Virus record (IMG/VR): IMGVR_UViG_3300047463_000230
Coordinates: 1-63,361 of that record
Direction: 5' to 3' (one strand)
Origin: a virus
Taxonomy: Duplodnaviria > Caudoviricetes
DNA: 63,361 nt
The notes below the pieces were generated by a model. That model saw nothing but the letters and a program-made list of their open reading frames with translations. It was not told the DNA's origin and did no database searches. Shown in pieces: positions 14,457 to 39,087 of the stretch. The translations under genes and the position numbers were made by a program. Positions within the stretch are counted from its first letter, which is position 1. Each line of letters begins with the position of its first letter.

Positions 14457-14984
14457 TCATCCGATTTCTCTATGCTCCAATTTTTTGAAATTGGAAAGTG
14501 GTATTTTCACATCATTCCTTATCCCAAGAACCAACACTGACAATTTTCCGCTTTGTTCGTTCAATATCTTTACAGTGCGGCCTGCCAGTGCACCTTCTGT
14601 AATTTCATAAAGCTTTCCAACAATTACCTCCTCAATACGCCTTGTCTCGTCATATTCACCTGATGCCTCACTATCGAACAGTCGTGCCATCTCCTCAGAC
14701 CGGATCGCAGAAGCCTCCCCATTGCACCCAACAAAGCCAAATATCTTTGAGTCACAACAAGAAACTGCAGATCGCGGAACATCAACAGGAACATCAACAA
14801 ACAGGTATCCTGGCATAAGTGCAAATGTCCTTCGGACCCTCCGAACCTTTGTGTTCTTTCCCCTCGCCTTGCACCACAGCAATCTTTTTGGGTAAAATGG
14901 TTGGCAAAGCGGCGCCTTTTCAGCAATCTTTTCTGAGATGCGACTTTCGGCGCCAGCAGCAACAGCGAGCACAAACCAAGTCAT
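14457..14984 (-). CDS. NusG/RfaH-family antitermination factor
   Basis: NGN domain (WFVL...LMPGYLFV) plus KOW-like ITEGALAG. Confidence 0.75.
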   Translation of the reverse strand: MTWFVLAVAAGAESRISEKIAEKAPLCQPFYPKRLLWCKARGKNTKVRRVRRTFALMPGYLFVDVPVDVPRSAVSCCDSKIFGFVGCNGEASAIRSEEMARLFDSEASGEYDETRRIEEVIVGKLYEITEGALAGRTVKILNEQSGKLSVLVLGIRNDVKIPLSNFKKLEHREIG

Positions 14985-19190: not shown

Positions 19191-19763
19191 ATGATTATAG
19201 GGTTCACTGGGTTAGCCGGGTCGGGCAAGTCGACCGCCGCCATGCACTTGGCGTCCGCCCATAAGTTTCAGCGCCTGCGATTTGCTGGCGCCCTGAAGTT
19301 AATGCTGCACGCGATGCACTTGACGCCGGAAGAAACTGATGGTTCACTGAAAGAGGAGCCGTGCAGTTTGCTTGATGGGAAAACCCCGCGCTATGCCATG
19401 CAGACATTGGGGACGGAGTGGGGTCGCGACCTGATATCGCCGGACTTGTGGGTCAACGTCTGGCGGCGCGAGGTCGGGGCCATTTTGTTCAAGCAGCCCA
19501 AGGCCGACATTGTCGTTGACGATGTCCGGTTCGACAACGAGGTACATGCCATCCTTGAACTGGGCGGCATTATAGTCCGCATCACGCGGTATGGCGTGGC
19601 GCGGGCGTCAGGTCATGCGTCCGAGGACGTTCCGGACTTCTGCACAGCCTTTGTCATGAACACCAAGGGCACTGTCAGCGAGTTCCAGGCTGACATTGAC
19701 AGCCAGCTGGATTACTGGCGCCGTCAAGTTTTCCCATTCACCATGAATGAGACAGCACCATGA
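19191..19763 (+). CDS. Deoxynucleoside monophosphate kinase
   Basis: IIGFTGLAGSGKST, FAGALK, PRYAMQTLGTEWGR, DDVRFDNE, H.SE. Confidence 0.85.
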   Translation: MIIGFTGLAGSGKSTAAMHLASAHKFQRLRFAGALKLMLHAMHLTPEETDGSLKEEPCSLLDGKTPRYAMQTLGTEWGRDLISPDLWVNVWRREVGAILFKQPKADIVVDDVRFDNEVHAILELGGIIVRITRYGVARASGHASEDVPDFCTAFVMNTKGTVSEFQADIDSQLDYWRRQVFPFTMNETAP

Positions 19764-20050
19764 AAAAGGCAATTAAGGTCGACGCCAAGGCGGCGCTTCG
19801 GCAGGCCAAAATGCGCCGGGACACGGTAAGCGCAACGCAACGCCTTGTCCGCATGACCGTCGCGGACGCCATTGACGCGGAGCGCCGCAAGGTGCTCACC
19901 ATCTTACAGACCGGCGTGAAGGCGGCGAAAGCCAGACGGAAGGCTAAGAAGATCACCAAGGGTGAATACGCCGGTAGCATGGCCGCCTTAGCCTTTGTGG
20001 CGGTGTGCCTAACGGACACCGGCTACGAAATGGAAACCGACGAGGACTAA
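19760..20050 (+). CDS. Hypothetical basic protein
   Basis: ATGA-coupled ORF. Confidence 0.5.
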   Translation: MKKAIKVDAKAALRQAKMRRDTVSATQRLVRMTVADAIDAERRKVLTILQTGVKAAKARRKAKKITKGEYAGSMAALAFVAVCLTDTGYEMETDED

Positions 20051-20065
20051 CGAAAGGGATCACCC

Positions 20066-20458
20066 ATGGCTGACGTTTACACTGTCGTTTTACAGACCAC
20101 TGCAAAGAACATGCCGACCATCCTGAAAACGGTGAACGGGGTGGCGACTTTGGTGTCTGTCACGGCGACCATCAAGGAGACTGATGGCGAACCCGCCAAG
20201 CGCCGCAACGGCGGCTATGTCGGGGGCAGGGCCAACAAGGGCATTAGGGGAGAAGACCTTGTGCTCGAAGTACTGTCGGCGGCGAACCGGGTCGTTACCT
20301 ACCATGAAATGACGGAGCGCTTTGCGGCCAGGGGCTTCGCGGGCAACAGCGTGTCCGCGACACTGTCAAGGATGGTGCAGGACGGTCGGGTGCGCCGGGT
20401 TGGGTCAGAGCGCTATGCGTTGCCGGGCACTGTCGTCAAGCTGGGAGACTTGAAATGA
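20066..20458 (+). CDS. Winged-helix DNA-binding protein
   Basis: NSVSATLSRMVQDGRVRRVGSERYAL. Confidence 0.55.
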   Translation: MADVYTVVLQTTAKNMPTILKTVNGVATLVSVTATIKETDGEPAKRRNGGYVGGRANKGIRGEDLVLEVLSAANRVVTYHEMTERFAARGFAGNSVSATLSRMVQDGRVRRVGSERYALPGTVVKLGDLK

Positions 20459-20988
20459 ATGAGCTCAAGGACAAGCTGGAAGCTGTATTGGCGACGGGCA
20501 TCAACGATGCCACCCTGGCGACGGTCAGGAAACAAGTCGATAATATTTGTGACGACTTGGCAGGGGACGTACTGGGCAAACTTAAGGAGGAACTAGCATA
20601 CTGGCTGTCCGACTGGGTCGGCGAAATGGCGACCAAGGTTGTCAAGGCCATTTTGGATGGTGACGAAGACGCCATGCGCGGTTACCTCGGATGCAAGGAG
20701 GGTTCCTTTTATACGGGACGCACGACCGGCTATTGCTCCAACCCAAGCACGCTGCACCAAGTCAGCGGCGACGGCACGCTGTTTGAACACGGGGCGCTGG
20801 CACTGCGCAAAAAGATCGTAGATGCATATCGCGACCTGCTAGTTGACCAGCGCATCCTTGACTTGGAGGACCAAGTCAAGTCGCTGGTCGGGCAGGTCAA
20901 CAGGCTGACGTATAAAAATTGTCAGCTTAAGCAGGACGCCCGCGACCGTGCCAGCCGCTTTGCACCGGGAGGGTACTCCGATGACTGA
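20455..20988 (+). CDS. Hypothetical coiled-coil protein
   Basis: Coupled ORF, heptad-like C-terminus. Confidence 0.5.
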   Translation: MNELKDKLEAVLATGINDATLATVRKQVDNICDDLAGDVLGKLKEELAYWLSDWVGEMATKVVKAILDGDEDAMRGYLGCKEGSFYTGRTTGYCSNPSTLHQVSGDGTLFEHGALALRKKIVDAYRDLLVDQRILDLEDQVKSLVGQVNRLTYKNCQLKQDARDRASRFAPGGYSDD

Positions 20989-21217
20989 TATGAGCGACGA
21001 TGTAAGGACACTGATGGCAAAGAGTGCAGAGCTGGCTACGCTGATTGAGTGCGGTCGCATCGTCAAGATGCTCAACCTTCAACGCCAGGGGGCGCCGGGG
21101 GCCATGCCACGGCTGACGCAGCACTTGGCAATGCTTCCGGTGTCGACGCGTAATGCCGTGACAGCGGCGCTCAACACTATTGTGATCGATATTCTGGAAG
21201 GGGGCGGTCATGGTTGA
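20981..21217 (+). CDS. Hypothetical protein
   Basis: GGAGG RBS before ATG 20981. Confidence 0.45.
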   Translation: MTDMSDDVRTLMAKSAELATLIECGRIVKMLNLQRQGAPGAMPRLTQHLAMLPVSTRNAVTAALNTIVIDILEGGGHG

Positions 21218-21431
21218 CATCAAACTTCGCGACTTGGAAAAAGTCATGCACCACGCTGGCGCACTTATGGACATGGGCGCGGAAATAGAGCGGGCAAGGT
21301 GCAAGCTCATTGTTGACCAGTGGTGCAGTCAAACGTTCCGCATGTCACAGCTCCCCCAGCTAACAGACGCGGAGGATCAGGCCATCAGCGCCATGCTCAA
21401 CCACATCCTAAAGGAGATCGAAAATGATTGA
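21210..21431 (+). CDS. Hypothetical protein
   Basis: Coupled ORF. Confidence 0.45.
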   Translation: MVDIKLRDLEKVMHHAGALMDMGAEIERARCKLIVDQWCSQTFRMSQLPQLTDAEDQAISAMLNHILKEIEND

Positions 21432-21786
21432 TTGGGATAAGCCACTGGTCACGCGTGACGGACGCAAGGCCACGGTTATCAGCATGACGCGCAAGACACC
21501 CGACAACCAGTACCCTATTGTTGCACTTGTCGAACGCGATGAGCACATTGACGACGTGTTCAGTTTCACAGCCGAAGGACGCTATGTGAGCAGTGGCTGC
21601 CATGATCTCGACCTTGTCAATGTGCCAACCGAGCGCACGGTGTTGTGGATCAACTTGTACCTTGCGCAGGGATGCGCCGCCGGTTATCGCTCCGGCGGTA
21701 GCTGCTATAAAACGGAGGCGGAAGCAAGGAATGCCGCAGGTGGCTCTGGTCACTTTGGCACCTTTCCCATCACATTTAAGGAGTGA
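21424..21786 (+). CDS. Hypothetical protein, paralogue 1 (IDW.KP..TR.GR family)
   Basis: Aligns by eye with the next ORF. Confidence 0.6.
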   Translation: MIDWDKPLVTRDGRKATVISMTRKTPDNQYPIVALVERDEHIDDVFSFTAEGRYVSSGCHDLDLVNVPTERTVLWINLYLAQGCAAGYRSGGSCYKTEAEARNAAGGSGHFGTFPITFKE

Positions 21787-22166
21787 CTGACATGAGCATC
21801 GATTGGAGCAAGCCAATACAAACACGCGCCGGGCGGCCGGCGCGGGTTATTTGTGCTGATCGCGCCGATGCACTACGCCCCGTGGTGGTGCTTATCAGAG
21901 GCGAAAGTGGCGATGAACTGGTGGCCAGCGTCACCCGCGCCGGCACCTACAGGACTACTAGTGCACCTGACGGCGCCGATATCATCAATGTGCCGGAGCC
22001 TGTGGAGTACTGGACCAACATTTATCAGACGTCAAACGGGGCTCATTTCAATAGCCCACTGTTCACCAGTGCCGCAGTAGCTGCGCAGGGGGCCGCCGCC
22101 CATAGCAGCAAGTGTCTTCGGACGCTGAAGCTGACCATTACGGGGGAGGTCTGCCATGTCGAGTGA
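21783..22166 (+). CDS. Hypothetical protein, paralogue 2
   Basis: IDWSKPIQTRAGRPARVI...DIINVP...WTNIY. Confidence 0.6.
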   Translation: MTDMSIDWSKPIQTRAGRPARVICADRADALRPVVVLIRGESGDELVASVTRAGTYRTTSAPDGADIINVPEPVEYWTNIYQTSNGAHFNSPLFTSAAVAAQGAAAHSSKCLRTLKLTITGEVCHVE

Positions 22167-22443
22167 ACAGAGGGTGCCACAGCCTGAGTTCTTTTACGTC
22201 TGGCATGAACACATGACGGCGCCGTCACCGTGCAAAGACCTACCGCTGGCACGGAAGCGGGTCGCAGAACTATCCAGTATGCTCCCCGGCACTGTCATTC
22301 ACTTGCTGCGTGCCACGTCCTGCGGTACGTCCCACTTGCCAAGGGACACACAACATACTGGGTGGATGGCAATGCAGGAACCCGCAGCCAGCATTGGTGG
22401 TGGCAGCCCTAACAGGGGGCCGGTTGCGCCGGGGGCGTCGTGA
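22156..22443 (+). CDS. Hypothetical protein
   Basis: GGAGG RBS. Confidence 0.45.
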   Translation: MSSEQRVPQPEFFYVWHEHMTAPSPCKDLPLARKRVAELSSMLPGTVIHLLRATSCGTSHLPRDTQHTGWMAMQEPAASIGGGSPNRGPVAPGAS

Positions 22444-22589
22444 CTGGTAGACGCCCGCCGGACTGGGCGGGTTATCACTGGGTGCACAGGCGGTCATGCC
22501 AATGCACCCAATGCCCATGGAAAGGTAACTGCAAGGGGACGGCGTGGTCGCACTGGCGCGAGGTTCCTGATACGAATGGAGGTCCACAC

Positions 22590-22787
22590 ATGACAGACCA
22601 AACAGCACAGCCGCCTATGACGGATGCGGAAGTACTGGCGGTCATCCGCATCATGATCCTAAACGGCACCTATAACCCAGTGGCCGTTGCTGCGGCCGTC
22701 TATAAGGTGCCGCTGGACCAAGTCACGCCGGGGCAGCGTCAACGGATCAGAGCGCTGGCCTTTCCTTATATGTATGGGGCACACTGA
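22590..22787 (+). CDS. Mini-protein resembling family-A DNA polymerase fingers (O-helix)
   Basis: AAAVYKVPLDQVTPGQRQRIRALAFPYMYG; GGAGG RBS before ATG 22590. Confidence 0.5.
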   Translation: MTDQTAQPPMTDAEVLAVIRIMILNGTYNPVAVAAAVYKVPLDQVTPGQRQRIRALAFPYMYGAH

Positions 22788-22788
22788 C

Positions 22789-23001
22789 ATGAAAGCGCAC
22801 GCAGTCGAGCTAAGCCTGGAAGAATCTGGCATTCTTTGCAACCTACTGATGTTTGCCATCGTGCCACTACAGGAAACAGTTAGAAGGGGCGAGGGGTCTT
22901 TTGCCATGGAGGTGGCGGCAGCGCAGTTAGTCCGTTATCAGACGTTGTGGGACAAATTGGCAAAGGTTAATGAGGAGCTAATGATGGAGCGTGCACCATG
23001 A
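22789..23001 (+). CDS. Hypothetical protein
   Basis: Coupled ORF. Confidence 0.45.
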   Translation: MKAHAVELSLEESGILCNLLMFAIVPLQETVRRGEGSFAMEVAAAQLVRYQTLWDKLAKVNEELMMERAP

Positions 23002-23687
23002 GCACTCGCAATGCCTTGTTGGCGTCGATCGAGCATTGGCGCCGTAATGCGGTGGGGCAGTTTGACGGCATAACCGGAGATAACTGCGCGCTGTGCGAGG
23101 AATTTTCGCATATGGTCGACTGCGACGGTTGCCCGGTCGCTGCTGCCGGTCACCCCGGCTGCATCACTACGCCCTACTATACGGCGCAGAGGGTTTACTA
23201 TAAGGCGGTGTCTTCCCCGGTGCTGATCAACACCACATTGGACCGAATGGTGATACGCGTTGGGGAGGAGTTTCTGGCGGCGGCCAAGGCCGAGCACGAC
23301 TTTTTGGTGTCGCTGCTGCCCAGCGTCACGGAACAAGGGGTGGCGGATGTATTTGAGCCACGCAGCATGCACCAGTGGCCAGGCGAGGGGGCTGTCGGGT
23401 TAACGCCGCGACAGGCGTTGCTGCATAGTATTGAGCACTGGCGGCGCATTGCGACGGGGTATGACAAGACACTGGGCGCTGGTGCCTGTGCTTTGTGCGG
23501 GCTGTATCAAGGACGCGCTGACAAAGGCCTTTGTGAGGGGTGCCCGGTCATGGCCAATACAGGTCTCCCCTACTGCCACGGGACGCCCTATAGAGACGCT
23601 TGGATCTGTCTGCGAAACGGTAGCTTCACTGGTGCCAAGGCTATGCACGACTTTTTGGTTGGGCTGCTGACCACAACAATGGAGTAG
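22998..23687 (+). CDS. Protein with duplicated Cys-rich domain
   Basis: ALL.SIEHWRR...CALC...C.GCPV...C..TPY...A.HDFLV.LL occurs twice. Confidence 0.65.
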   Translation: MSTRNALLASIEHWRRNAVGQFDGITGDNCALCEEFSHMVDCDGCPVAAAGHPGCITTPYYTAQRVYYKAVSSPVLINTTLDRMVIRVGEEFLAAAKAEHDFLVSLLPSVTEQGVADVFEPRSMHQWPGEGAVGLTPRQALLHSIEHWRRIATGYDKTLGAGACALCGLYQGRADKGLCEGCPVMANTGLPYCHGTPYRDAWICLRNGSFTGAKAMHDFLVGLLTTTME

Positions 23688-23694
23688 AGGCCAC

Positions 23695-23925
23695 ATGACG
23701 ACGCATCAGGAAAGACTGGCGGCCATTGACGCGTTGCCACCTGATGTCCGTGGTTGTGTGCACGACTATGGCTATACAGTCGTGGACACTTGCCTACAGC
23801 TTGGCGTGCGCAAGCCCAAGCATATTCGCCACTTGGTCACGACTGTGATGAATGAACTATCGCCGGTCAATGGTGCGTACTCACGGCAAGGTTTTAACAA
23901 CAATCGAGGAGGCAATAATGGCTAA
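23695..23925 (+). CDS. Hypothetical protein
   Basis: RBS; IDALPPDVR..VHDYG. Confidence 0.5.
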   Translation: MTTHQERLAAIDALPPDVRGCVHDYGYTVVDTCLQLGVRKPKHIRHLVTTVMNELSPVNGAYSRQGFNNNRGGNNG

Positions 23926-24532
23926 AAAGGCAGCAAAAAAGCAGAAGCAAGAGGTAAGTCCTGTTGACATCGACATTGAATCAGAGCTTGGATCATTTGT
24001 ACCAGATGCAAATCAACTTTCATCAATTGAGTCAATTGTTCGTCAAGGCGCTGCTTTGATGGAGCAGATTGCCTCAGCTGAGGAATTTCTCAAACAGGCC
24101 AAAGGCGAGCTTCACTTGCTGACTACAAGGACGCTTCCGGATGCAATGGCTTCAGCAGGAACATCTGAGTTTAAGACTGAAAGCGGTCTCAAGGTGACGA
24201 TTAAGGATTTTATCTCTGGGTCGCTTCCCAAAGAAGATGATGCACGGACCGCAGCATTGACTTGGCTCGCAGAAGTTGGTGCGGGTGATATCATCAAGAA
24301 TAAGCTCAGCATTGAGTTTGAAAAGGGAGAGGACAATCTCGCTGGCGATGTCGCAGGCTATGTTGATGGTCTCGGTCTTGACTATGAACAAAAACGTGAT
24401 GTACATCCCCAGACCCTTCAATCATTCGCTCGTGAGCGAATGAAGGCTGGTGAAGATGTCCCGCTGGATATGCTTGGCCTTTATGCCGGCCGAGCTGCCA
24501 AGATTGATTTGCCAAAGAAGAAGGGAGCTTGA
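23918..24532 (+). CDS. Phage replication/recombination-associated protein
   Basis: Coiled coil, LPDAM, WL...G.GDIIK and VHPQTL..F.RE motifs; a type I recall adjacent to SSB genes. Confidence 0.5.
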   Translation: MAKKAAKKQKQEVSPVDIDIESELGSFVPDANQLSSIESIVRQGAALMEQIASAEEFLKQAKGELHLLTTRTLPDAMASAGTSEFKTESGLKVTIKDFISGSLPKEDDARTAALTWLAEVGAGDIIKNKLSIEFEKGEDNLAGDVAGYVDGLGLDYEQKRDVHPQTLQSFARERMKAGEDVPLDMLGLYAGRAAKIDLPKKKGA

Positions 24533-24535
24533 CAA

Positions 24536-25489
24536 ATGTCTCGTATGATAACAATCATCGGCTCTGGAATGGCTGGCCTTCTGGCCGGCAACATGCTATC
24601 TCGAAATGCCATCAGGATCATTGAGGCACAAAAAGAGCTTCCGAACAATCACAGCGCAGTCCTTCGGTTTCGTTCATCTGTTGTCTCGGATGTTCTTGGC
24701 ATTCCATTCAAAAAAGTAAAGCTGATCAAAAGCTATCTGCCATGGAAAAATCGTGTGGCAGATAGCTTGTCATATGCTCACAAGTGCTCAGGCATTTCTC
24801 GCTCGGATCGATCGATCATTACTGAAGAATTTGCTGCCGAACGCTGGATTGCCCCTCCTGATTTGATTGAGCAGATGGCTCAGCCACTTATTGGCGCAAT
24901 TGAATTCGGAAAAACTTTTACTGATGAAAGCATCAACACAATTGATTGCTCTGATCCAATCATTTCAACAATGCCGATGCCTGTTTTGATGAAATTGCTC
25001 GGATACAAGGATGCCCCCAATTTCAATTATGTCGGCGGCGCTAATGTTCACCTTCGGATATCTGACTGTGATGCTTATGCATCGCTCTATGTTCCTGATC
25101 CACTCTACAAGTTCAATCGGGCATCGATCACAGGAGATGATCTCTGTGTTGAATATTCCTTTCCTTCCCACCTTCCTGACAATCAAATCGAGTGGCTTGA
25201 CAAAAACAAATACAGTGAAGCATATGATGCTGCACAACTGTTTGGTTTTCATCGCTCCCGCATCCAGAGCATTTCACTGAGTGCGCAGCGCTATGCCAAG
25301 ATACAGCCCATTGATGAGAATGCTCGAAAAGCATTTATCGCTTGGGCAACTGACAACTTCAACATTTTCTCGCTCGGTCGCTTCGCAACTTGGCGACCGG
25401 GCCTGCTGCTTGATGACCTCGTCCACGATGTCAGGCTTGTCCAGAAATGGATCAACTCTGACCGTTATTCAATGAAGTTCCACCGCTGA
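24536..25489 (+). CDS. FAD/NAD(P)-binding oxidoreductase
   Basis: IIGSGMAGLLA Rossmann motif, E at end of beta-2, C-terminal LGRFATW. Confidence 0.75.
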   Translation: MSRMITIIGSGMAGLLAGNMLSRNAIRIIEAQKELPNNHSAVLRFRSSVVSDVLGIPFKKVKLIKSYLPWKNRVADSLSYAHKCSGISRSDRSIITEEFAAERWIAPPDLIEQMAQPLIGAIEFGKTFTDESINTIDCSDPIISTMPMPVLMKLLGYKDAPNFNYVGGANVHLRISDCDAYASLYVPDPLYKFNRASITGDDLCVEYSFPSHLPDNQIEWLDKNKYSEAYDAAQLFGFHRSRIQSISLSAQRYAKIQPIDENARKAFIAWATDNFNIFSLGRFATWRPGLLLDDLVHDVRLVQKWINSDRYSMKFHR

Positions 25490-25500
25490 AGGAGGCTGTT

Positions 25501-26262
25501 ATGAAAGTTACACTGCTCGACTACACCGGCGCAGGATGCCACATCGACTATGCCATCGACCTCTTGATCTTCACCAAGGGGACACGACTTCAAATGTCGC
25601 CAGCTGCTCGTGATGAAATCAGGAATTGGCCATACGACAAGAAGATTGATGAAATCAAATACATGGCCAATACCATCCCAAGCTCTTGGGAGTTTGTTGA
25701 CTACACCTTCATGATTGAAGGCGTCACCAGAGCTTTTACCCACCAGCTTGTCCGGACTCGCACTGCATCCTTTGCCCAACAAACGATGCGAGTGCTCAAT
25801 GTTGGGGATGGTCCTGGCTGGGACTATCTGACAGGTCCAACGATCGAGCATGAGCCAATTGTTGGCGCCGAAGACCCAACACTCAAGGCTGTTTATGATA
25901 ATTGCATGGAAAATATTTCCAAAACATATAATCATCTCATTGTTGCTGGGGCAGCTATTGAGGATGCGCGCGGCGTTCTCCCGACCAACATTCTCACAAA
26001 CATTGTGATGAAATGCAACATGCGCACCTTCGTCGAGATGGTCCACAAGCGCTCCTCGCCACGGACACAAGGTGAATATCGCAACGTACTTGATGCAATG
26101 AAAACTGCCGCGCTTGGTGCACACCCATGGCTCACACATTTTGTTGAGCGTACTTTTGACAAGGCAGCCAGCGACCTTGACAAGGAAATCAGCGAAATTG
26201 ATGACACAGCCAAGCGCACTAGGATGATTAAGCTTGTGGACCAGCTGAGGGCAAAGCAATGA
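25501..26262 (+). CDS. thyX: Divergent flavin-dependent thymidylate synthase (ThyX-like)
   Basis: F.IEGVTRAFTHQLVRTRTASFAQQTMR, EDARGVLP, N.R, Q.E; RHR changed to RTR and S to T. Confidence 0.75.
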   Translation: MKVTLLDYTGAGCHIDYAIDLLIFTKGTRLQMSPAARDEIRNWPYDKKIDEIKYMANTIPSSWEFVDYTFMIEGVTRAFTHQLVRTRTASFAQQTMRVLNVGDGPGWDYLTGPTIEHEPIVGAEDPTLKAVYDNCMENISKTYNHLIVAGAAIEDARGVLPTNILTNIVMKCNMRTFVEMVHKRSSPRTQGEYRNVLDAMKTAALGAHPWLTHFVERTFDKAASDLDKEISEIDDTAKRTRMIKLVDQLRAKQ

Positions 26263-26714
26263 AAAAGGAATTTGTGCTCATTGATATTGATCATGTCATC
26301 TCTGATGCCGCTTGGCGCGACGAGATGATCGGCGGCGATGGCGGCTGGGATGCCTATCATGCTGAATCGATCAATGATGATCCGTGCCACGACATTGTCC
26401 AACTTGTCAATGCTCTGCATTCCTCCGGATTGCAAGTAATCGGTTTGACGGCCCGCCCTGAGAAATGGCGAATGCTGACCAATTCATGGCTCATTAAGCA
26501 CTCGATACAGCTTGATGAGATATTGATGCGGCCAGACAAAAATTTTTCACCTTCCCCTGAGCTAAAAATCAGCTTGGCACGCGATCTATTCCAAGGCAAA
26601 GTTGCAGATAACGTTGCATTCATTCTTGATGATCGAGATGATGTTGTTGCTGCATTCCGCGCTGAAGGAATCACAGCACTTCAAGTTTTCACTGGCAAGT
26701 CAAAGGAGGCATGA
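26259..26714 (+). CDS. HAD-family phosphatase (PNKP 3'-phosphatase-like)
   Basis: DIDH, LTARPE, LMRP, K, DDRDDVV. Confidence 0.75.
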   Translation: MKKEFVLIDIDHVISDAAWRDEMIGGDGGWDAYHAESINDDPCHDIVQLVNALHSSGLQVIGLTARPEKWRMLTNSWLIKHSIQLDEILMRPDKNFSPSPELKISLARDLFQGKVADNVAFILDDRDDVVAAFRAEGITALQVFTGKSKEA

Positions 26715-27428
26715 ATGACCACTTATAGGAATGTTATCATAACCGGCGCAAGCTCTGGGCTTGGAAAAGAGCTTGCTTCCAAACTCGACGATGGCTACAC
26801 CATAATCACCAATTGGTCACTTCCATTTGTTGATGTGACTGACAAGGATAGCATTGAGGATGCAAAGGAAGCGTTTGCCAGAGGGCTATTTCCTGGTGTT
26901 GACATTCTTATCAACTGTGCCGGTGTCAATCACCTGTCAGCAATTGGCGATCTTGACATTGCCGATTGGGAACAGGTCATCAACACAAATGCTCGTGGCA
27001 TTTGGATGACAACAAAGGCGCTCCTTCCAGTCATGAAGGGCGGGACAGTTCTCAATATTGTTTCAAATGCATCTGGCATGCCAATGACGCATTCATTGGC
27101 ATACAATGCATCAAAGGGCGCCGCTAAGATCATGACTATGCAAATGGCTCGTGAATTGGGGAAAACTCACAATATCACTGTTTTCGGAATTTCACCAAAC
27201 AAGCTCGCTGGCACAGGAATGAGCGAGCAGATTGACAAGCGAGTTTGCGAACTTCGCGGTTGGACGCCAGAAGAGGCAAGGAGCTATCAGCTTGCTGCAC
27301 TTCCTTGTGGCGAGGAAACTAATCCAGAGACTCTTGCCGAATTCATCGCCTTCTTGTTATCATCAAAAGAGCGACACAAATACCTGCAGGGATGCATCAT
27401 TCCTTATGGCGGACCGATGGGAGTTTGA
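26715..27428 (+). CDS. Short-chain dehydrogenase/reductase
   Basis: TGASSGLG, INCAG, S, YNASK. Confidence 0.85.
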   Translation: MTTYRNVIITGASSGLGKELASKLDDGYTIITNWSLPFVDVTDKDSIEDAKEAFARGLFPGVDILINCAGVNHLSAIGDLDIADWEQVINTNARGIWMTTKALLPVMKGGTVLNIVSNASGMPMTHSLAYNASKGAAKIMTMQMARELGKTHNITVFGISPNKLAGTGMSEQIDKRVCELRGWTPEEARSYQLAALPCGEETNPETLAEFIAFLLSSKERHKYLQGCIIPYGGPMGV

Positions 27429-27431
27429 CCA

Positions 27432-27905
27432 ATGAAAATCGATCAGGTTGCTTGGTATGCGCGCGATGAAAAAGCTGCTGATGAACTCAAGATTAAACTT
27501 GGTCTCCAGGATGCCAAGTGGATCATTGATAATGTCACTGGGAAAAGCATTTTTGAGGATGAGACAATCGACATCAACAAGGGCCATCTTCAATTCAATT
27601 ATGACCTCGGAATTGAGTTGGAGATATTGACCTACACATCCGGACAGCATTGGCACCAAAGAACAAATCCTTTTTGGCTCGATAAATCCCAAAGTTTCTT
27701 TCATTCTCATACAGGACTCCACCTTGATCCTGGCGATATTTTTCCTGATATGCCAGGCTGCCTTCTTGTTCAGGAGACATTCACGCTGTCTCATACATCA
27801 GAATATTTGACAACGGGTGCCGGTGCCGGGAGGAAATACCACTACAGGATACATCAGTTGTCTCCTGGCAATTACATCAAGTTCATCAAACGCATTCAAC
27901 CTTGA
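27432..27905 (+). CDS. VOC/glyoxalase-like protein (epimerase?)
   Basis: IDQVA, ELEIL, SHTGLH pattern resembling beta-alpha-beta-beta-beta metal sites. Confidence 0.4.
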   Translation: MKIDQVAWYARDEKAADELKIKLGLQDAKWIIDNVTGKSIFEDETIDINKGHLQFNYDLGIELEILTYTSGQHWHQRTNPFWLDKSQSFFHSHTGLHLDPGDIFPDMPGCLLVQETFTLSHTSEYLTTGAGAGRKYHYRIHQLSPGNYIKFIKRIQP

Positions 27906-27915
27906 GGCAATGACA

Positions 27916-28230
27916 ATGGCTGATGTTGATGATATCTTGATGAATGCGGCTAATACATTTTCTGCCCGCAAAACAGTCTATGGTCATAACTACCTGCGAG
28001 TGGGAGCTGCACTCGCAGGAATGTTTCCTGATGGAATTGTGCTGAGAAGTGAAGATGACTTCAATCGATTTCACATCTTGATGCTGACATTTGTCAAGCT
28101 ATCAAGGTACTGCGTGAACTGGGAGACGGGCGGGCATCAGGACTCAATCCATGATGCTTCAATTTATTGCGCCATGCTTGAAATGATTGATGGAAACATC
28201 AAGGGGAGGCGCGCCAATGAGCAATCATGA
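27916..28230 (+). CDS. All-alpha nucleotide-modification-associated / dNTP pyrophosphatase-like protein (Nmad1/DUF6378-like)
   Basis: R...YG, KLSR, H.DS..D...Y.AM. Confidence 0.55.
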   Translation: MADVDDILMNAANTFSARKTVYGHNYLRVGAALAGMFPDGIVLRSEDDFNRFHILMLTFVKLSRYCVNWETGGHQDSIHDASIYCAMLEMIDGNIKGRRANEQS

Positions 28231-28645
28231 TTTCCTCGATCCAAATACTTGGGGAGAATTCAACAAGGGATTTGAATGGAGGATTTATGGTGATGACTTA
28301 GCTCAAATATGGTCGGTTGTTGATGAAGAAGACTACCATCACCTTTCCCAATGGAAGTGGTCGCCAAAGTGGTCGCGCGGCCAACGTAAATTCTATCTTC
28401 GTCGGAATGTTCAAGTCGGTCGCCGGTCGTTTCGAACTCAAACAACTCTTTATCTTCACGAGGCAGTGATGATGAATGCTGGGATCAAGCGCCCTTCGGA
28501 TGCCCATCTCATCATCGACCATCGGGATGGCAACTCGATGAACTGCCGCCGATCTAATCTGCGTTGGGCAACTCACTCAATGAATGCTCGAAATCTCTTT
28601 GGCTCAAAGGCTGAAGACCACCACTTTGAAAGACTTGGAGTCTGA
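28217..28645 (+). CDS. HNH homing endonuclease-like protein
   Basis: VDEEDY, LH, IDHRDGNSMNCRRSNLRWAT...N. Confidence 0.85.
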   Translation: MSNHDFLDPNTWGEFNKGFEWRIYGDDLAQIWSVVDEEDYHHLSQWKWSPKWSRGQRKFYLRRNVQVGRRSFRTQTTLYLHEAVMMNAGIKRPSDAHLIIDHRDGNSMNCRRSNLRWATHSMNARNLFGSKAEDHHFERLGV

Positions 28646-28646
28646 T

Positions 28647-29204
28647 ATGCTTGCAGTTGTCTTTGATACAGAAACCAACGGCTTGATATCAAACCACTCA
28701 ATCAAGCTCGAAAAGCAGCCCAGCATCATTGAGTTCTATGGCTGTTTGGCTGATCTTTCAACTGGTGAGATAAAGAGCGAGCTTGATCAGCTGATCAAGC
28801 CGCCCGCTCCACTCTTGGAAGTTGTTGCGCCCGGTGAGCGCCGGACCATAACTGAGATCACAGGCATCACCAATGAGATGCTCAATGATAAGCCGAAGTT
28901 TTCGCTTGTGGCGCCTCAAATTGCTCAGTTCATTGAACAGGCCCCGGCAGTCATTGCCCATAATGCCAGTTTCGACCGCGAAATGGTTGACATTGAATTT
29001 GAGCGCCTTGGCCAGCACCTTGTGTGGCCGAGGGTCATTTGTGCTGTTGAAGCAACGATCCATCTTAAAGGCTTTCGACTCAGCTTGACTGCGCTGCATG
29101 AGCACCTTTTCGGAGTCCCCTTTGCTGGTGCTCACCGGGCCAAGCAGGATGTTGCAGCCCTTCTGAAGTGCTGTGTTAAGCTCTATGAGGATGGAGCGCT
29201 GTGA
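28647..29204 (+). CDS. dnaQ: DEDDh 3'-5' exonuclease (Pol III epsilon-like)
   Basis: FDTETNG, AHNASFD, AHRAKQD. Confidence 0.85.
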   Translation: MLAVVFDTETNGLISNHSIKLEKQPSIIEFYGCLADLSTGEIKSELDQLIKPPAPLLEVVAPGERRTITEITGITNEMLNDKPKFSLVAPQIAQFIEQAPAVIAHNASFDREMVDIEFERLGQHLVWPRVICAVEATIHLKGFRLSLTALHEHLFGVPFAGAHRAKQDVAALLKCCVKLYEDGAL

Positions 29205-29485
29205 TGTGTTCTGACATCATCGACAAAGTCGTCAAGCAGCAGGCCCGACTAAATCACGTAGCAATGATGGCTTGCCCAAAGTGCGGCTATGCTTACTCGA
29301 AGGCCATTGATACAAATCGCGCTAAAACAATGACAGAAGTCAGGCGCAATCGCAGCTGCTTGAAATGCTCATCGCAATTCATCACATATGAGATCATCGC
29401 ATCAGACTATGCCATGCTACAATCTTTTCGGCGCTGGACAAAAGAGGAAAGCCAGCGAATTGTTGACACTCAGGAGGTCAAATGA
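29201..29485 (+). CDS. NrdR-like zinc ribbon without ATP cone
   Basis: CPKC....SKAIDT...VRRNRSCLKCSSQFITYE. Confidence 0.65.
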   Translation: MMCSDIIDKVVKQQARLNHVAMMACPKCGYAYSKAIDTNRAKTMTEVRRNRSCLKCSSQFITYEIIASDYAMLQSFRRWTKEESQRIVDTQEVK

Positions 29486-32313
29486 TCCGCTCTGGCTACA
29501 GCTTCCGCACCGCCTTCGGGCACTTGCCTGATGTTCTTAGCCGCGTCATCGAATGCGGCTATAAGGTCGCCCCGTTGGCAGATCGCTGCTCAACATTCGG
29601 CTTTGTGCGATGGACGAAGCTCTGCAAAAAATCCAACATTCGGCCAGTTTACGGGGTCGAGTTGGCAGTGACGGGCGCCTTTGGCACAAAGAAGCCAGTT
29701 GTTGATCATTGGACATTTTTGGCAGTCAACGGACTCAAGGGGATTCACAGTCTTGTTGCTCTGGCCACTGCAAATCCAGATCGCGATCCGAGCTTGAGTT
29801 ATGACCAAGCGCTGGCTGCTGAAGACGTCATAATCATAACAGGTGAAAAAGCACAACTTGATAATTTTCCCCCAGCGCCGAACCTCTATGTCGCCTTGTC
29901 GCCAGCCACGCCCAAAGGTTTCTATCGCGCCGCCAAGGCTGCCGGTCACAAGTTCATCGCTCGTAGCGATAATCTTTATCCGAGGCCAGAAGACAAGGAG
30001 ATATACCGCATTGCGCTTGGGCGGCGCTCAACGACCCAAACATACCCCCAGTACATTTTGACCAAAGATGAATGGTTCGAGGCATTGAAGTGGACTGCTG
30101 ATTCTGCTGATATTGCCGAGGCCTGGGAAAACAAGATTGCAGCCCTTGACAGCTGCAAGGCTGAGTTGCATCGCGCCGAACTTTTGAAGCCAGAGCGTCC
30201 TGACACCTTGCGCAACCTCTGTTTGGCAGGAGCCAAAAAGCTCAAGGTCAATCTCAAGAACAAAATCTATTCAGAACGGCTCAATAGGGAGTTGAAACTA
30301 ATTTCTGAGAAAAACTTTGAAGACTATTTTTACATCATTGCCGATATGATAGCTTGGGCAAAGCAGCACATGATTGTTGGTCCGGCGCGCGGGTCATCTT
30401 GCGGATCGCTTGTGTGCTATTTGCTCGGGATCACCACAATTGATCCGATACCATTCGGATTGATCTTTGAGCGCTTCATTGATATTAATCGAAAGGACTT
30501 GCCAGATATTGATATCGATTTTTCTGATGCTAGGCGCGACCTTGTGTTCAAATATGTCGAAAAGAAGTATGGGCGCGACCGCGTTGCGCGTCTCGGCACT
30601 GTTGGATTGTTCAAGCCGCGCTCGGCATTGAATCAAGCTGGCATCTCGCTCCAGATACCACGCTGGCTTGTTGAGCGGACGCTTGATGGCGTCATCGAGC
30701 GCTCCGGCGGCGATTCACGCGCCATGTTGGCGCTTGAGGACACACTTAATGGCACAGAGATGGGCCGCAAGCTGCTGGATGAATATCCGGAGGCAAGACT
30801 TGCTGGCAAGATGGAGGGGCATCCGAACAATGCATCTCAGCACGCGGCTGGTATTGTCCTGACAGAGCATCCCCTTTCTGAATATGTGGCAATTGACTCG
30901 CGCACTAATTCAGCAATGTGCGACAAGAAAGATGCTGAAGATCTCAACTTGCTGAAAATTGACGCGCTTGGGTTGACACAACTTTCGGTTTTTGAACGGA
31001 CACTTGAACTCATCGGCAAGCCTGCCCGCAGCGGGTTTCTTGAGACGCTTCCGCTTGATGATGTGAAAGCATTTGATGTTCTCAACTCAGGGCACTTCTC
31101 TGGCATATTCCAGTTTACTGGAACAGCACTAATGTCCCTGACACGACAGGTCAAGATAACAAACATCGATGACATCATCTCTATCACTGCTCTGGCTCGG
31201 CCAGGACCAATGGCAACGGGCGGCGCCAACTCCTGGGTCAAGCGTCGCAGCGGTCGCGAAAAGGTAACAACACAACACCCGATGCTGACTGAGCTCACAA
31301 AGGAGACTTATGGCATCGTTGTGTATCAGGAGACTGTAATGAACATTGCTCGCGGCATTGGGCAATTGTCCTGGGAGGATACATCCGAGTTGCGCAAGGC
31401 CATGTCTAAGAGCTTGGGTGATGAGTTCTTCAATGCTTATTGGATCAAGTTTCGTACTGGGGCGCTGGCCAATGGGCTGGAGGAAAAGACTGCTCGGGAA
31501 ATTTGGGATCAAGTCAATACCTTTGGCTCATGGGCCTTCAACAAGGCCCATGCGGTGGCTTATGGCATTGTCAGCTACTGGTGCTGTTGGCTCAAGGCCC
31601 ATCATCCGGTTGAGTTCGCTGCTGCAACACTTGATGCTGAGGCTGATCCGGCTAAACAGATCAAAATGCTACGTGAGCTTGAATCAGAAGGCGTGAAGTA
31701 CAAGCCTGTTGATCCAGATCATTCAACTGACAGATGGAGCTTCAAGACAGAAGGAGACGAGAGGATTCTTATTGGCCCAATAACATCGATCAAAGGCATT
31801 GGCCCTGCATCGATGAGGGAAATCCTCGATGCGCGGAAAAATGGCGAACCATTGCGCGCATCTTTAGCCAAGAAACTGGCTAATTGCAAAACTGAGATCG
31901 ATACACTCTATCCGATCCGTGATAGGATCAAGCAATTGCATCCTGATTTATCTGCTATAAAAATTGTCACGAAGCAGACCGATGTTATCGATGTCAGAGA
32001 TGGAGAGGAAAAAGAGGTCATGATCTTGGGAGTCGCGACTAAAATTGCGCCAGTTGATGAAAATGAAAATATTCGAGTCATGAGGCGCGGCAAGGAGGTT
32101 TCTGGCCCGTCTGCATCTCTCAATTTGTTCTTTGCTGATGACACAGATGAGGTATTTTGCAAAGTTAATCGCTTTAAATTTGAAAGCATCGGGCGAGCAA
32201 TTGTCGACCGTGGCCGGCCCGGAAAGTCCCTTTATGCAATCAAAGGTCGAACGGTCCGAACTTTCCGGATGATTGATGTCCAGCAAGTCCGCTATTTGGG
32301 AGACCTAGAATGA
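29482..32313 (+). CDS. dnaE: DNA polymerase III alpha subunit (family C)
   Basis: GPARGS, FERFI, PDIDIDF, HAAG, KIDALGL, GIFQF, RPGP, YQE, FNKAHA. Confidence 0.92.
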   Translation: MIRSGYSFRTAFGHLPDVLSRVIECGYKVAPLADRCSTFGFVRWTKLCKKSNIRPVYGVELAVTGAFGTKKPVVDHWTFLAVNGLKGIHSLVALATANPDRDPSLSYDQALAAEDVIIITGEKAQLDNFPPAPNLYVALSPATPKGFYRAAKAAGHKFIARSDNLYPRPEDKEIYRIALGRRSTTQTYPQYILTKDEWFEALKWTADSADIAEAWENKIAALDSCKAELHRAELLKPERPDTLRNLCLAGAKKLKVNLKNKIYSERLNRELKLISEKNFEDYFYIIADMIAWAKQHMIVGPARGSSCGSLVCYLLGITTIDPIPFGLIFERFIDINRKDLPDIDIDFSDARRDLVFKYVEKKYGRDRVARLGTVGLFKPRSALNQAGISLQIPRWLVERTLDGVIERSGGDSRAMLALEDTLNGTEMGRKLLDEYPEARLAGKMEGHPNNASQHAAGIVLTEHPLSEYVAIDSRTNSAMCDKKDAEDLNLLKIDALGLTQLSVFERTLELIGKPARSGFLETLPLDDVKAFDVLNSGHFSGIFQFTGTALMSLTRQVKITNIDDIISITALARPGPMATGGANSWVKRRSGREKVTTQHPMLTELTKETYGIVVYQETVMNIARGIGQLSWEDTSELRKAMSKSLGDEFFNAYWIKFRTGALANGLEEKTAREIWDQVNTFGSWAFNKAHAVAYGIVSYWCCWLKAHHPVEFAAATLDAEADPAKQIKMLRELESEGVKYKPVDPDHSTDRWSFKTEGDERILIGPITSIKGIGPASMREILDARKNGEPLRASLAKKLANCKTEIDTLYPIRDRIKQLHPDLSAIKIVTKQTDVIDVRDGEEKEVMILGVATKIAPVDENENIRVMRRGKEVSGPSASLNLFFADDTDEVFCKVNRFKFESIGRAIVDRGRPGKSLYAIKGRTVRTFRMIDVQQVRYLGDLE

Positions 32314-34007
32314 TCCGCGCTGAAGTTGCTGGTGAATTTGCCAATATCATTGGCCCATTCCCATTCCCGTTCGTCCGGTTGCTGAATGGTTTGTCCGGTC
32401 GCAAGCAGTGGAACAGCAGCAAATCAGTTCGTATCTTGGCAACAGCTGGAAATATTCGGCTGCTCAAGAGTTCTGATTATGATATTGAATGGATCGATAA
32501 AAGCGGCGATCTTGCAGCCCAGCAGGAGCTTGAGGCGCTGGCCACTCAACACTCAACAATAGAGCTTCCAAAGAGCGCCTATCAGCCCAAGATCAAGCTC
32601 TATGAATATCAGCAACGCATTCTTGCGCTGTCTTGGAACCGAACGCATTATGCATTGCTTCTTGAAATGGGCCTCGGGAAAACAGCCATTTTGCTCTCAA
32701 CGGCTGGAATGTTGCATGCTGCCGGAAAGGTGACAGGGGTGCTCGTCATCGCGCCCAAGGGCGTCCATCGCCAATGGATTGAGAGTGAAATACCCAAGCA
32801 CATGGGCGAAGGCATTCCGCTCGGCAGCGAGTTTTCTCCTGTCCACACAATCTTGTGGAAGGTTGGCGGCAACGGCATTGATGTCAATAAGGCCAACAAG
32901 CGCGGGCTGACATTCTTCGCAATGAACACTGACTCAATCAGAACAAAGGCTGGTGCTTCAGCAGCAATTCAATTTTTGAATGCCCATCATGGTAGGTCGC
33001 TTCTCATTGCAGATGAATCCCACAATTATAAGACCCCTGGAACAGACCGAACAAAAGCCCTCTTGGCCCTAGGGCAGTATGCTACCTACCGGCGGATTGC
33101 CACTGGCACACCAATCGCTAAAAATATCATTGATGCCTGGACCCAATTCAATTTCCTTGATCCTCGTATTCTTGGTCATAAATATATGACCAGCTTCCGC
33201 GCTCGCTACTGCATTATGGGCGGCTGGGAAGGCAAACAGATCATTGGTCAAAAGAACACTGAGGAGTTCTATGGTCTAATTGCTCCGCATGCTTATCGGT
33301 TGACAAAAGCCGAAGCCATTGACTTGCCCGAAAAAGATTATGTCATCAGGGAATATGAAATGGGCGAGCAGACTGCGCGGCACTACAAGGAGTTGAAGAC
33401 AACATTCATGACAGAATTAGACAATGGCTCGATTGTTGATGTCCCAACAGCAGCAGTTGCGCTGATCCGACTGCAGCAAATTGTCTGCGGATATTTGCCA
33501 ACAGAAGAAGGCATTGAGCATATCAGCAATGAGCGCATCGATCAAGTTATTGAGATCATCAAGCAGGTCAATGGCCCTGTCATCATCTGGACGCGCTTCC
33601 GGGAATCATTGCACAATCTAATCGCTGCACTCGAAAAAGAAGAAGGTGCTGGCTGCGCAGTGAACTATTATGGTGGAACATCGACTACAGATCGCCAGAT
33701 CGCAGTCAAGAGGTTCCTTGATGGTAGTGCCCGGTTTTTCGTTTCCAATCCAGCGGCCGGCGGCGTCGGGCTCAATCTTCAAGGTGAGTGTCGTAATGTG
33801 ATATACTTTGCCAACGACTTCAACTATGTCTCACGCATTCAGTCAGAAGACCGCGTCCACCGGATCGGCACCACCGGATCAGTCACCTATTTCGACTTGG
33901 TAGCGCGCAAGACGATTGACCGGATGATACTGCGCAATCTACGGGCGAAGTCAGACCTGAGCCGATTGACGTTTGACGAGATACGACAGGCAATCACAGA
34001 AATGTGA
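32310..34007 (+). CDS. SNF2-family helicase
   Basis: EMGLGKT, DESH, TGTP, GLNL, QSEDRVHRIG. Confidence 0.88.
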   Translation: MIRAEVAGEFANIIGPFPFPFVRLLNGLSGRKQWNSSKSVRILATAGNIRLLKSSDYDIEWIDKSGDLAAQQELEALATQHSTIELPKSAYQPKIKLYEYQQRILALSWNRTHYALLLEMGLGKTAILLSTAGMLHAAGKVTGVLVIAPKGVHRQWIESEIPKHMGEGIPLGSEFSPVHTILWKVGGNGIDVNKANKRGLTFFAMNTDSIRTKAGASAAIQFLNAHHGRSLLIADESHNYKTPGTDRTKALLALGQYATYRRIATGTPIAKNIIDAWTQFNFLDPRILGHKYMTSFRARYCIMGGWEGKQIIGQKNTEEFYGLIAPHAYRLTKAEAIDLPEKDYVIREYEMGEQTARHYKELKTTFMTELDNGSIVDVPTAAVALIRLQQIVCGYLPTEEGIEHISNERIDQVIEIIKQVNGPVIIWTRFRESLHNLIAALEKEEGAGCAVNYYGGTSTTDRQIAVKRFLDGSARFFVSNPAAGGVGLNLQGECRNVIYFANDFNYVSRIQSEDRVHRIGTTGSVTYFDLVARKTIDRMILRNLRAKSDLSRLTFDEIRQAITEM

Positions 34008-38792: not shown

Positions 38793-39087
38793 AAGCTACC
38801 TAGGGAACTGTCAACTTTTATCCATTGCGTGCGCGGCTGCCTTTTTCGCCCTGGCGTTCGGCATGCTTCTCGAGCGTAGCGGCGCCCTTGCCAAAGCGCG
38901 TGGACGGGCACGGGCAGACGCCATCAATGAGGCAGTGGCCATGATCCAGAAACACGCGTCGACCATGGAGACCGGGACAATCGCGGAGGGGTCGGACCTC
39001 AACGGTTACATGAAACTTAAAGCGTCCCACTACAGGCAAGCGGCGCAACGTGTGACGGCGCTGCATCAGGAGGCTACCAATGGATGA
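38779..39087 (+). CDS. Membrane-anchored hypothetical protein
   Basis: Hydrophobic N-terminal segment. Confidence 0.45.
   Translation: MTAYESYLGNCQLLSIACAAAFFALAFGMLLERSGALAKARGRARADAINEAVAMIQKHASTMETGTIAEGSDLNGYMKLKASHYRQAAQRVTALHQEATNG

Follow-up and report, generated by a model that had tools for sequence, protein, structure and literature searches.

Both a textbook enzyme and a drug target, ThyX has an accepted mechanism that is anchored by residues regarded as 'invariant'. The question raised by the locus discussed here is what a ThyX protein does when several of these residues have been replaced. The locus lies in the virus record IMGVR_UViG_3300047463_000230, which was analysed over its whole length of 63,361 bases and is called the window below. 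The record is 100% complete according to CheckV and represents a freshwater myovirus, encoding terminase, portal, sheath and baseplate proteins as well as a DNA polymerase of the PolIII-alpha type. Three elements are central to the question:

25501..26262, + strand: ThyX-variant gene, 253 amino acids, ATG start; predicted ThyX fold with the nucleotide-side residues kept and the folate-side residues replaced
25490..25495, + strand: AGGAGG ribosome-binding site, 5 nt ahead of the ThyX-variant ATG and directly 3' of the stop codon of the partner gene
24536..25489, + strand: flavoprotein of the flavin adenine dinucleotide (FAD) type, 'Ross317', 317 amino acids, with an N-terminal GxGxxG (G9, G11, G14), E30 and a C-terminal LGRFATWRP; called the partner below

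The answer that we prefer, tentatively and at slightly less than an even chance, is that the variant and the partner constitute a phage-only two-flavoprotein module acting on C5 of deoxyuridine monophosphate (dUMP), in which a partner-dependent ThyX makes deoxythymidine monophosphate (dTMP). This reading starts from four observations, namely the family membership, the fold, the residue pattern and the pairing of the genes.

Active site of the ThyX variant

Judged from its profile matches and its structural model, the open reading frame (ORF) at 25501-26262 is a Pfam Thy1/ThyX protein with the ThyX fold. It matches Pfam Thy1 (PF02511) with an E-value (E) of 3.2e-32 and 112.3 bits (cut-off 24.8), the PHROG thymidylate synthase families, and the NCBI thyX equivalog TIGR02170 with 89.5 bits (cut-off 87.9). 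An AlphaFold (AF2) model, built from 30 homologues and having a predicted local distance difference test score (pLDDT) of 79.4, was compared with known structures using Foldseek, which gave a probability of 1.00 and template modelling (TM) scores of 0.51-0.65 to ThyX of Thermus thermophilus, Helicobacter pylori, Thermotoga maritima and PBCV-1. PolB (4p5b) is also found among the structural matches, with E 4.7e-08.

The residues are numbered here as in the T. maritima enzyme. The His of the HxSxxE motif is presumably His53. The remaining numbering follows from the definition of the RHRx7S motif, which is used as the ThyX signature (PMC2826268), and from the residue numbers in PMC11940539. In T. 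maritima ThyX, His53 stacks on the folate pterin when the ternary complex is formed and also on the isoalloxazine in its reduced state, and it is hydrogen-bonded to Tyr91 and Asn85 (PMC11940539). Arg78 stabilises the anionic reduced flavin, and mutation of Tyr91 makes the flavin oxidation ca 1000-fold slower (PMC11940539).

HMMER alignments to solved ThyX chains place RTRTASFAQQTMRV of the window opposite RHRHFSFSQLSQRF in 3ge9/3fnn and RHRHFSYSQLSQRY in 3gwc, that is, the canonical RHRxxSxxxxSxR[YF] has become RTRTASFAQQTMRV and the signature RHRx7S reads RTRx7T. In the same alignments, WEF of the window faces LEH of the solved chains. The canonical HxSxxEH corresponds to IPSSWEF (I59 P S61 S W E64 F65). 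A MAFFT alignment with four canonical proteins (Bacillus phage SPbetaL5, Haloarcula virus HCTV-10, Clostridium phage CP26F and P0262) leads to the same picture. These four have H.S..EH, RHR, S and Y at the positions where the window has I59, S61, E64, F65, R-T86-R, T95 and V98. The folate- and flavin-stacking His53 is thus replaced by I59, and the Tyr or Phe at position 91, after the last Arg, by V98. The residues that bind and activate dUMP (Q75, R78, R90, R147 and R174) are all present in the window as Q82, R85, R97, R157 and R184, and E154, D155, A156, R157, L160, P161, N173, R175, Q190 and E192 are retained as well. The alignments confirm what the initial annotation had read from the letters, namely the His to Thr and Ser to Thr exchanges in the signature, the IPSSWE in place of HxSxxE and the intact FAD scaffold (EDAR..LP, N.R, Q.E).

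The same pattern is found in a large number of homologues. A word-indexed search with the ThyX variant gave 4087 proteins at E<=1e-5 among 4499 candidates, and an exhaustive search of representatives at 50% identity gave 2691 at E<=0.001, of which 98 at E<=1e-30. The pattern R[TS]R..[SN][FY]AQQ[TSA].R[VI] fits 112 of the 120 best homologues, the other 8 falling outside it, and TIPSSWEF is present in 100 of the 120; this conservation is far beyond chance. Residue statistics were collected over the window protein, the ORFs (>=180 amino acids) from 172 loci described below and homologous proteins of 200-420 amino acids, which after removal of identical rows amount to 372 sequences. The counts for these (n=372) are as follows, with the window residue in brackets for four of the retained positions:

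H53: I 343, V 14, L 9, H 2
F57: W 322
H59: F 355
H79 (His of RHR): T 244, S 61, H 50, N 12
Position 85: A 358
E86: Q 346
S88: T 203, S 100, A 68
Position 91: V 261, T 37, I 34, A 15, L 8, F 8, M 5
E58: kept in 369/372
Q75: kept in 367/372
R78: kept in 372/372
R80: kept in 368/372
R90: kept in 363/372
R147 (R157): kept in 371/372
R165 (R175): kept in 365/372
R174: kept in 370/372
Q180 (Q190): kept in 351/372
E182 (E192): kept in 361/372

Read in terms of the known enzyme, these numbers indicate that the nucleotide side and most flavin contacts are strongly constrained, while the face of the flavin that is used by folate and by NADPH (the reduced form of nicotinamide adenine dinucleotide phosphate) has been rebuilt. 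As judged from the alignment, the clade is defined by I, V or L in place of the HxSxxE His, by F in place of the His that follows the Glu, and by the missing aromatic residue behind the last Arg. A Trp (W63), located one helical turn from I59, could take over the stacking from His53.

A tree was calculated with IQ-TREE in its 'quick' mode for 111 of 121 rows, which are proteins of 200-420 amino acids from the exhaustive search that were then restricted to rows of 215-350 amino acids. The window falls in a clade of 100 rows with a Shimodaira-Hasegawa-like approximate likelihood ratio test (SH-aLRT) support of 97, together with Pbunavirus DL60, E. coli phage FEC19, Vibrio phage VA-RY-3 and Rhizobium phage TM61. 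His53 is lacking in 100/100 rows of this clade, and the four canonical rows lie outside it, all on the same side of a branch whose support is 91. The window and Pbunavirus proteins are ca 37% identical and are found on opposite sides of the deepest split of the clade. The His of RHR changes state at least 8 times inside the clade, which means that its replacement by Thr is not the defining event.

The suggestion of the initial annotation, that the protein uses another donor or carries out another chemistry, therefore stands in part. The substitutions are real, conserved and located on the folate/NADPH face of the flavin, but the His and Ser changes in the signature do not define the clade. With these face substitutions, a second flavoprotein next to the gene, and sugar-bearing thymidine in the related Pbunaviruses, a changed donor or a changed chemistry is a serious possibility.

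Some further features of these proteins can be mentioned. The variants of Pbunavirus and of the Wifcevirus type have a Cys-rich C-terminal extension (L003:4001-4918 and L090:5001-5831), and so does a sub-branch that keeps RHR (P0150 and relatives), which in addition has one extra residue (RHRVG). The window protein is without this extension, and its C-terminus is a basic helix. There is also a separate small clade of ThyX-like proteins from actinophages (Hawkeye L085, P0256, P0258, P0259, P0263, P0266 and P0268), with Leu at the His53 position, R[QTNH]R and a retained Phe91. The partner is absent from Mycobacterium phage Hawkeye (0 matches), the sole genome of the actinophage clade that was checked.

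Occurrence of the variant and its flavoprotein partner

The clade is large and essentially phage-only, comprising thousands of sequences from phages, for which ThyX is the routine annotation, and is thus not peculiar to the window. In the GenBank phage collection the variant matches 543 records. Among the matches listed, near-full-length relatives with 35-49% identity come from Pbunavirus, Wifcevirus-type coliphages and phages of Serratia, Xanthomonas, Rhizobium, Vibrio, Cronobacter and Ralstonia, and are annotated as thymidylate synthase or as hypothetical. A collection with one genome per prokaryotic species (185,579 species according to its description) gave 10 loci, all of them in records titled as metagenome-assembled genomes (MAG). 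The clade without the folate-stacking His includes the PB1-like Pseudomonas phages that are used in therapy. No description of this ThyX subclass or of its partner was found in full-text searches of the literature, and a megablast search with positions 20000-32000 of the window gave no match in the GenBank phage collection. Near-identical DNA is present in 4 runs that belong to 3 metagenome studies of freshwater or aquatic samples; one of them may be the source of the record.

The variant is the only thymidylate synthase gene, of either the ThyX or the ThyA type, in the complete 63-kb phage. The ThyA profile (PF00303) gave 0 matches in the window, while the control matched 10/14 genomes, and it was found in 0/4 related phages (14-1, FEC19, VA-RY-3 and the 203-kb Rhizobium phage TM61). 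In each of the 5 genomes tested, the variant is thus the only thymidylate synthase gene. In TM61 it lies ca 3 kb from the genes of a dUTPase and a ribonucleotide reductase.

The partner has an FAD Rossmann motif and an overall fold that is nearest to UDP-galactopyranose mutase, within the group of amine oxidase, protoporphyrinogen oxidase and mutase flavoproteins. It matches no Pfam family at E<=0.01, including GLF and Amino_oxidase, and the best E of its profile against the PDB is 0.05-0.13. It belongs to PHROG 4828, labelled 'unknown function', and its neighbours in the Atlas are virus-only clusters. Compared to the UDP-galactopyranose mutases, which have 365-510 amino acids, the partner is short with its 317, and the identity is 12-15%. 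These mutases work via a covalent flavin-sugar adduct.

The pairing of the two genes was examined in 172 variant loci, 83 in a first set and 89 in a second set that includes a scan of the prokaryote collection. Related loci came up in alignment-based scans, while a query with the single protein gave none. The partner is present in 160 of the 172, always upstream and on the same strand, with a median gap of 19 nt and with 102 cases within 150 nt. The partner is missing from 12 loci. In 10 of these the DNA upstream is shorter than 750 nt, L100 belongs to the actinophage type, and L131 has 2.6 kb of upstream DNA without a partner. There is redundancy among the loci, which reduce to 147 different proteins and, by clustering, to 137 groups at 90% identity (128 with partner) and 85 at 70% (79 with partner). 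The sub-branch that keeps RHR is also paired with the partner, meaning that the pairing tracks the clade and not the state of His79.

A profile of the partner detects it in 4/4 variant-bearing phages and in phage 14-1, but in 0/5 phages that carry other ThyX types. In the phage collection it matches 361 records, and the numbers of partner and variant matches follow each other by host (Pseudomonas 291 vs 292, Escherichia 27 vs 27, Serratia 9 vs 9, Rhizobium 8 vs 10). The pair occurs in 40-kb podoviruses, in 60-70-kb myoviruses and in 200-kb Rhizobium phages; in the latter the two genes are ca 2 kb apart and the polymerase module is not adjacent.

Canonical ThyX is a homotetramer with shared active sites that forms dTMP from dUMP, methylene-tetrahydrofolate and NAD(P)H. 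This enzyme, also known as FDTS (T. maritima TM0449, PDB 1o26 and 4gt9; also 3fnn, 3gwc and 2cfa), belongs to the same Pfam family as the variant, has the same fold, and shares with it the Arg/Gln set of the nucleotide side and E58, N163, R165, Q180 and E182 on the FAD side. The variant differs by H53I, H59F and F57W, by an RHR His that is mostly Thr or Ser, by Thr, Ser or Ala at Ser88, by the lost aromatic 91, by its obligate flavoprotein neighbour and by being essentially confined to phages. PolB (PDB 4p5a/4p5b), which methylates uridine monophosphate (UMP) or dUMP in polyoxin biosynthesis, is an example of the ThyX fold being used outside plain dTMP supply; its sequence similarity to the variant is remote (E 0.0019). 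PolB lies in a bacterial antibiotic gene cluster and is not known to have a flavoprotein partner. TrmFO, RlmFO and MnmEG resemble ThyX in relaying a carbon from flavin N5 to uracil C5, but differ in their folds and their RNA substrates. For MnmEG, the intermediate is believed to be captured by a nucleophile rather than reduced (PMC8989533).

Possible products of the module

In the mechanism that we tentatively prefer, the ThyX variant would be the nucleotide-binding and catalytic half of the module. It would bind FAD and dUMP in the same manner as ThyX and move a carbon from N5 of the reduced flavin to C5 of the uracil, and the resulting product, probably dTMP, would then be used by the deoxynucleoside monophosphate (dNMP) kinase and the PolIII-type replisome of the phage. 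The folate/NADPH face would be rebuilt through His53 to Ile, Phe57 to Trp one helical turn away, His59 to Phe and the loss of the aromatic residue at 91. The partner, with its resemblance to UDP-galactopyranose mutase and amine oxidases, would be an obligate helper that may reduce, gate or feed the variant, possibly in contact with it. Points in favour of dTMP are the family membership and the fold, the intact residues of the nucleotide side, the status of the variant as the sole thymidylate synthase gene in the five genomes, its proximity to the dUTPase and ribonucleotide reductase genes in TM61, its tight operon beside the replication genes, and the pairing with the partner.

There are several points that weigh against dTMP as the product. 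The TIGR02170 score exceeds its cut-off by just 1.6 bits, and the similarity to solved ThyX proteins is weak (E 7e-07 for the single protein and 4.3e-11 for a profile). The stacking His53 is I, V or L in 366/372 sequences. The methylene-transfer steps of the T. maritima Tyr91 and Ser88 mutants are 100- to 1000-fold slower (PMC11940539, PMC8316439), and in the clade the aromatic residue at 91 is gone and Ala occurs at 88, according to which the Ser88 hydroxyl is dispensable there. A plain thymidylate synthase needs no second flavoprotein. Finally, in Pbunavirus, the one genus with the pair that has been examined well, F8 and 14-1 carry an unexplained sugar-bearing thymidine derivative of the C5 type, and 14-1 has the pair, with the variant as ORF59 and the partner as ORF65, and no gene of the ThyA family. 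As to the residues, the losses at 85 and 91 count for less than that of His53, since both positions vary among canonical enzymes; the solved chain 3fnn has S and F there, and these losses are therefore less serious than one would conclude from the T. maritima mutants by themselves.

The thymidine derivatives were described in a preprint by Yee et al. (2025; PMC12191111) as new nucleosides of 362 in F8 and 390 in 14-1. They replace about a quarter of the thymidine, in a TG context, and were read as a tetrose sugar-alcohol derivative (362) and a circularised aldopentose derivative (390). The preprint assigns no genes to them, and the word 'thymidylate' occurs 0 times in its text; a later Pbunavirus preprint (PMC13307970) likewise assigns none, and no gene assignment for the Pbunavirus modification was found in full-text searches of the literature. 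By our own arithmetic, the mass of 362 would correspond to deoxyuridine (dU) + pentose + 2H - H2O or equally to 5-hydroxymethyldeoxyuridine (5-hmdU) + tetritol - H2O, and that of 390 to dU + hexose - H2O or equally to 5-hmdU + pentose - H2O. As a side note, Extended Data Table 3 of PMC12191111 gives a 'DraI' site, CACNNN/GTG, that contains TG, although the F8-cutting enzymes are described in the text as being without TG.

The main alternative to partner-dependent dTMP synthesis is that the pair performs the first step of a thymidine hypermodification. The variant would then attach to C5 of dUMP a group other than methyl, namely hydroxymethyl or a carbon or ether of sugar origin, or it would oxidise the methyl group of thymine; the mutase-like partner would handle a sugar or the flavin redox chemistry, and the end product would be a sugar-bearing thymine in the phage DNA, as in Pbunavirus. 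We regard this as a real contender, with the balance leaning against it. Every described pathway obtains its C5 carbon through a dUMP hydroxymethylase of the ThyA type (PMC8989533), and neither the window nor 14-1 has one. Phage 14-1 holds both the variant and the partner, and 362 and 390 have no assigned genes. The hypermodification systems of phages M6, ViI, PaMx11 and others (Lee et al. 2018, 2021) have, like the window, a C5-pyrimidine enzyme near a dNMP kinase and replication genes. The masses fit dU-aldose or 5-hmdU adducts, the nearest fold of the partner is a sugar-nucleotide mutase, and the folate-side residues are lost with a Trp gained. However, the TG context and the partial replacement imply a sequence-specific step at the level of DNA, while ThyX is a mononucleotide enzyme, and leftover 5-hmdU is not reported in F8 or 14-1. 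The chemical data stem from F8 and 14-1 and not from the window phage, whose protein is separated from the Pbunavirus ones by the deepest split, and the 'DraI' entry adds to the reservations. The window ORFs that were scanned with Pfam (E<=0.001) gave no match to a glycosyltransferase, to a kinase or transferase acting on 5-hmdU DNA, or to any other recognised DNA-modification family. The Tet_JBP dioxygenase profile matched 0/5 records, its control also matching nowhere. The reductase gene that follows in the window cassette is, moreover, missing in 14-1 and DL60. A more specific version, which we take to be less likely than not, is that the clade represents a new flavin system for sugar-bearing thymine, in which the rebuilt ThyX no longer takes the folate methylene. 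Along one conceivable route, C5 of dUMP would be linked to an aldose at the carbonyl carbon of the latter, by way of a flavin-N5 iminium like that of UDP-galactopyranose mutase. Along the other, the last step of ThyX would be reversed, the thymine methyl being oxidised to an exocyclic methylene that is trapped by a sugar hydroxyl. In both, the mutase-like flavoprotein would supply the sugar or the redox half, and such a system, if true, would explain 362 and 390 without a ThyA-type hydroxymethylase.

The other alternatives are much less probable. An unusual donor, that is, dTMP made with a one-carbon unit that does not come from methylene-tetrahydrofolate but, for example, from formaldehyde or from an iminium provided by the amine-oxidase-like partner, would account for the lost folate-stacking His and for the fold group of the partner, and T. 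maritima ThyX can indeed use formaldehyde via a flavin carbinolamine (PMC8316439). We nevertheless consider it improbable. The S88A, R90A and Y91A mutants slow the consumption of the carbinolamine, and of these residues Ser88 and Tyr91, which aid the reaction, are lost or variable in the clade; the dissociation constant (KD) for formaldehyde is ca 20 mM (PMC8316439); and none of the evidence points to a substrate amine. Still smaller is the chance that the variant is an ordinary stand-alone ThyX, the partner being merely a syntenic passenger of a conserved replication module. Most loci do share the exonuclease and polymerase module, which makes many of the co-occurrences not independent, and the actinophage sister clade lacks His53, with no partner in Hawkeye. 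On the other hand, the pair holds in three genome types, including the 200-kb Rhizobium phages without an adjacent polymerase module, the counts match by host, and the partner does not occur in the five phages with other ThyX types. Finally, we give hardly any credence to the idea that the protein acts on another nucleotide, such as deoxycytidine monophosphate or UMP, as PolB does, or that it is catalytically dead. PolB, a UMP/dUMP methylase, is among the structural matches, but the clade keeps the residues for binding and polarising dUMP almost without exception, which speaks against a dead protein.

What is at stake differs between the readings. If the variant still makes dTMP, the roles accepted for the lost residues need revision and the enzyme has a form made of two proteins. 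If it makes no dTMP, the pair is the leading candidate for the genes that give Pbunavirus its sugar-modified thymine, a modification that decides whether therapeutic phages are hit by END-type nucleases.

Neighbouring genes and other observations

The variant lies in a tight operon, its stop codon sharing ATGA (26259-26262) with the ATG of the downstream gene. The following genes of the module and its surroundings were considered, with recurrence counted in the first set of 83 loci:

19191..19763, + strand: dNMP kinase (phrog_139 E 7.8e-44; Pfam DNMK E 1.9e-09), ca 6 kb upstream of the variant
26259..26714, + strand: HAD phosphatase of the PNKP-phosphatase type, 151 amino acids (Pfam HAD_PNKP E 3.1e-15; phrog_415 E 3.9e-30), downstream of the variant in 60/83 loci
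26715..27428, + strand: classical short-chain dehydrogenase/reductase (SDR), 237 amino acids, accessory (Pfam adh_short E 7.3e-34), in 30/83 loci
27432..27905, + strand: possible VOC/glyoxalase-like protein, 157 amino acids, accessory (Atlas structure search, TM 0.63-0.69 to glyoxalase/VOC clusters, taken as a lead), homologue in 20/83 loci, always after the SDR
28187-28645, + strand: HNH endonuclease ORF, in 2/83 related loci
28584-29204, + strand: RNase T-type exonuclease, in 69/83 loci
29201-29485, + strand: NrdR-type zinc-ribbon protein, 94 amino acids (E 2.2e-12), between the exonuclease and polymerase genes
29482-32313, + strand: PolIII-alpha-type DNA polymerase, in 59/83 loci

The dNMP kinase likely provides the next step for the dNMP product of the module. 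The phosphatase matches the N-terminal part of a polynucleotide kinase/phosphatase (PNK/phosphatase) ORF in phages 14-1, DL60 and FEC19. The SDR is present in FEC19 but not in 14-1, DL60, VA-RY-3 or TM61. Its assignment as a pteridine- or dihydrofolate-type reductase is not supported, as hydroxybutyrate, acetoin or ketoacyl reductases make up its 60 best solved relatives, and the idea that the SDR and the HAD phosphatase constitute a tetritol-phosphate route to the F8 modification is not supported either, the SDR being missing in 14-1 and DL60. The protein at 27432..27905 has no Pfam or PHROG match.

The replication genes at 28584..32313 travel with the variant and its partner. The HNH ORF, located between the cassette and the exonuclease and overlapping the start of the latter (28584), is probably a mobile insertion, given that it is found in only two of the loci. 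The region 24001-34000, from the partner through the polymerase and helicase, has a G+C content of 47-50%, compared to 56-65% across most of the rest of the genome, and this lower value suggests that the replication and nucleotide module has a history different from that of the structural genes. The primase region at 14-18 kb also falls to ca 50% G+C.

Upstream of the partner there are a Pam3 gp34-like gene (PF23977; 18055-18888, + strand) and a Pam3 gp33-like gene (DUF7307; 23852-24532, + strand), which recur there in 47/83 and 38/83 loci, respectively. A homologue of the cell-cycle regulator GcrA is encoded at 39080-39619 on the + strand (Pfam GcrA E 4.1e-14). The GcrA family is typical of Alphaproteobacteria, and the homologue hints at an alphaproteobacterial host. 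Beside the portal gene, among the head genes, a protein of 614 amino acids (7364-9211, - strand) has an N-terminal NUDIX hydrolase domain fused to a DUF2213/phrog_6216 body, and a homologue of the NusG-like transcription factors is found at 14457-14984 on the - strand (Pfam NusG E 2.7e-08).

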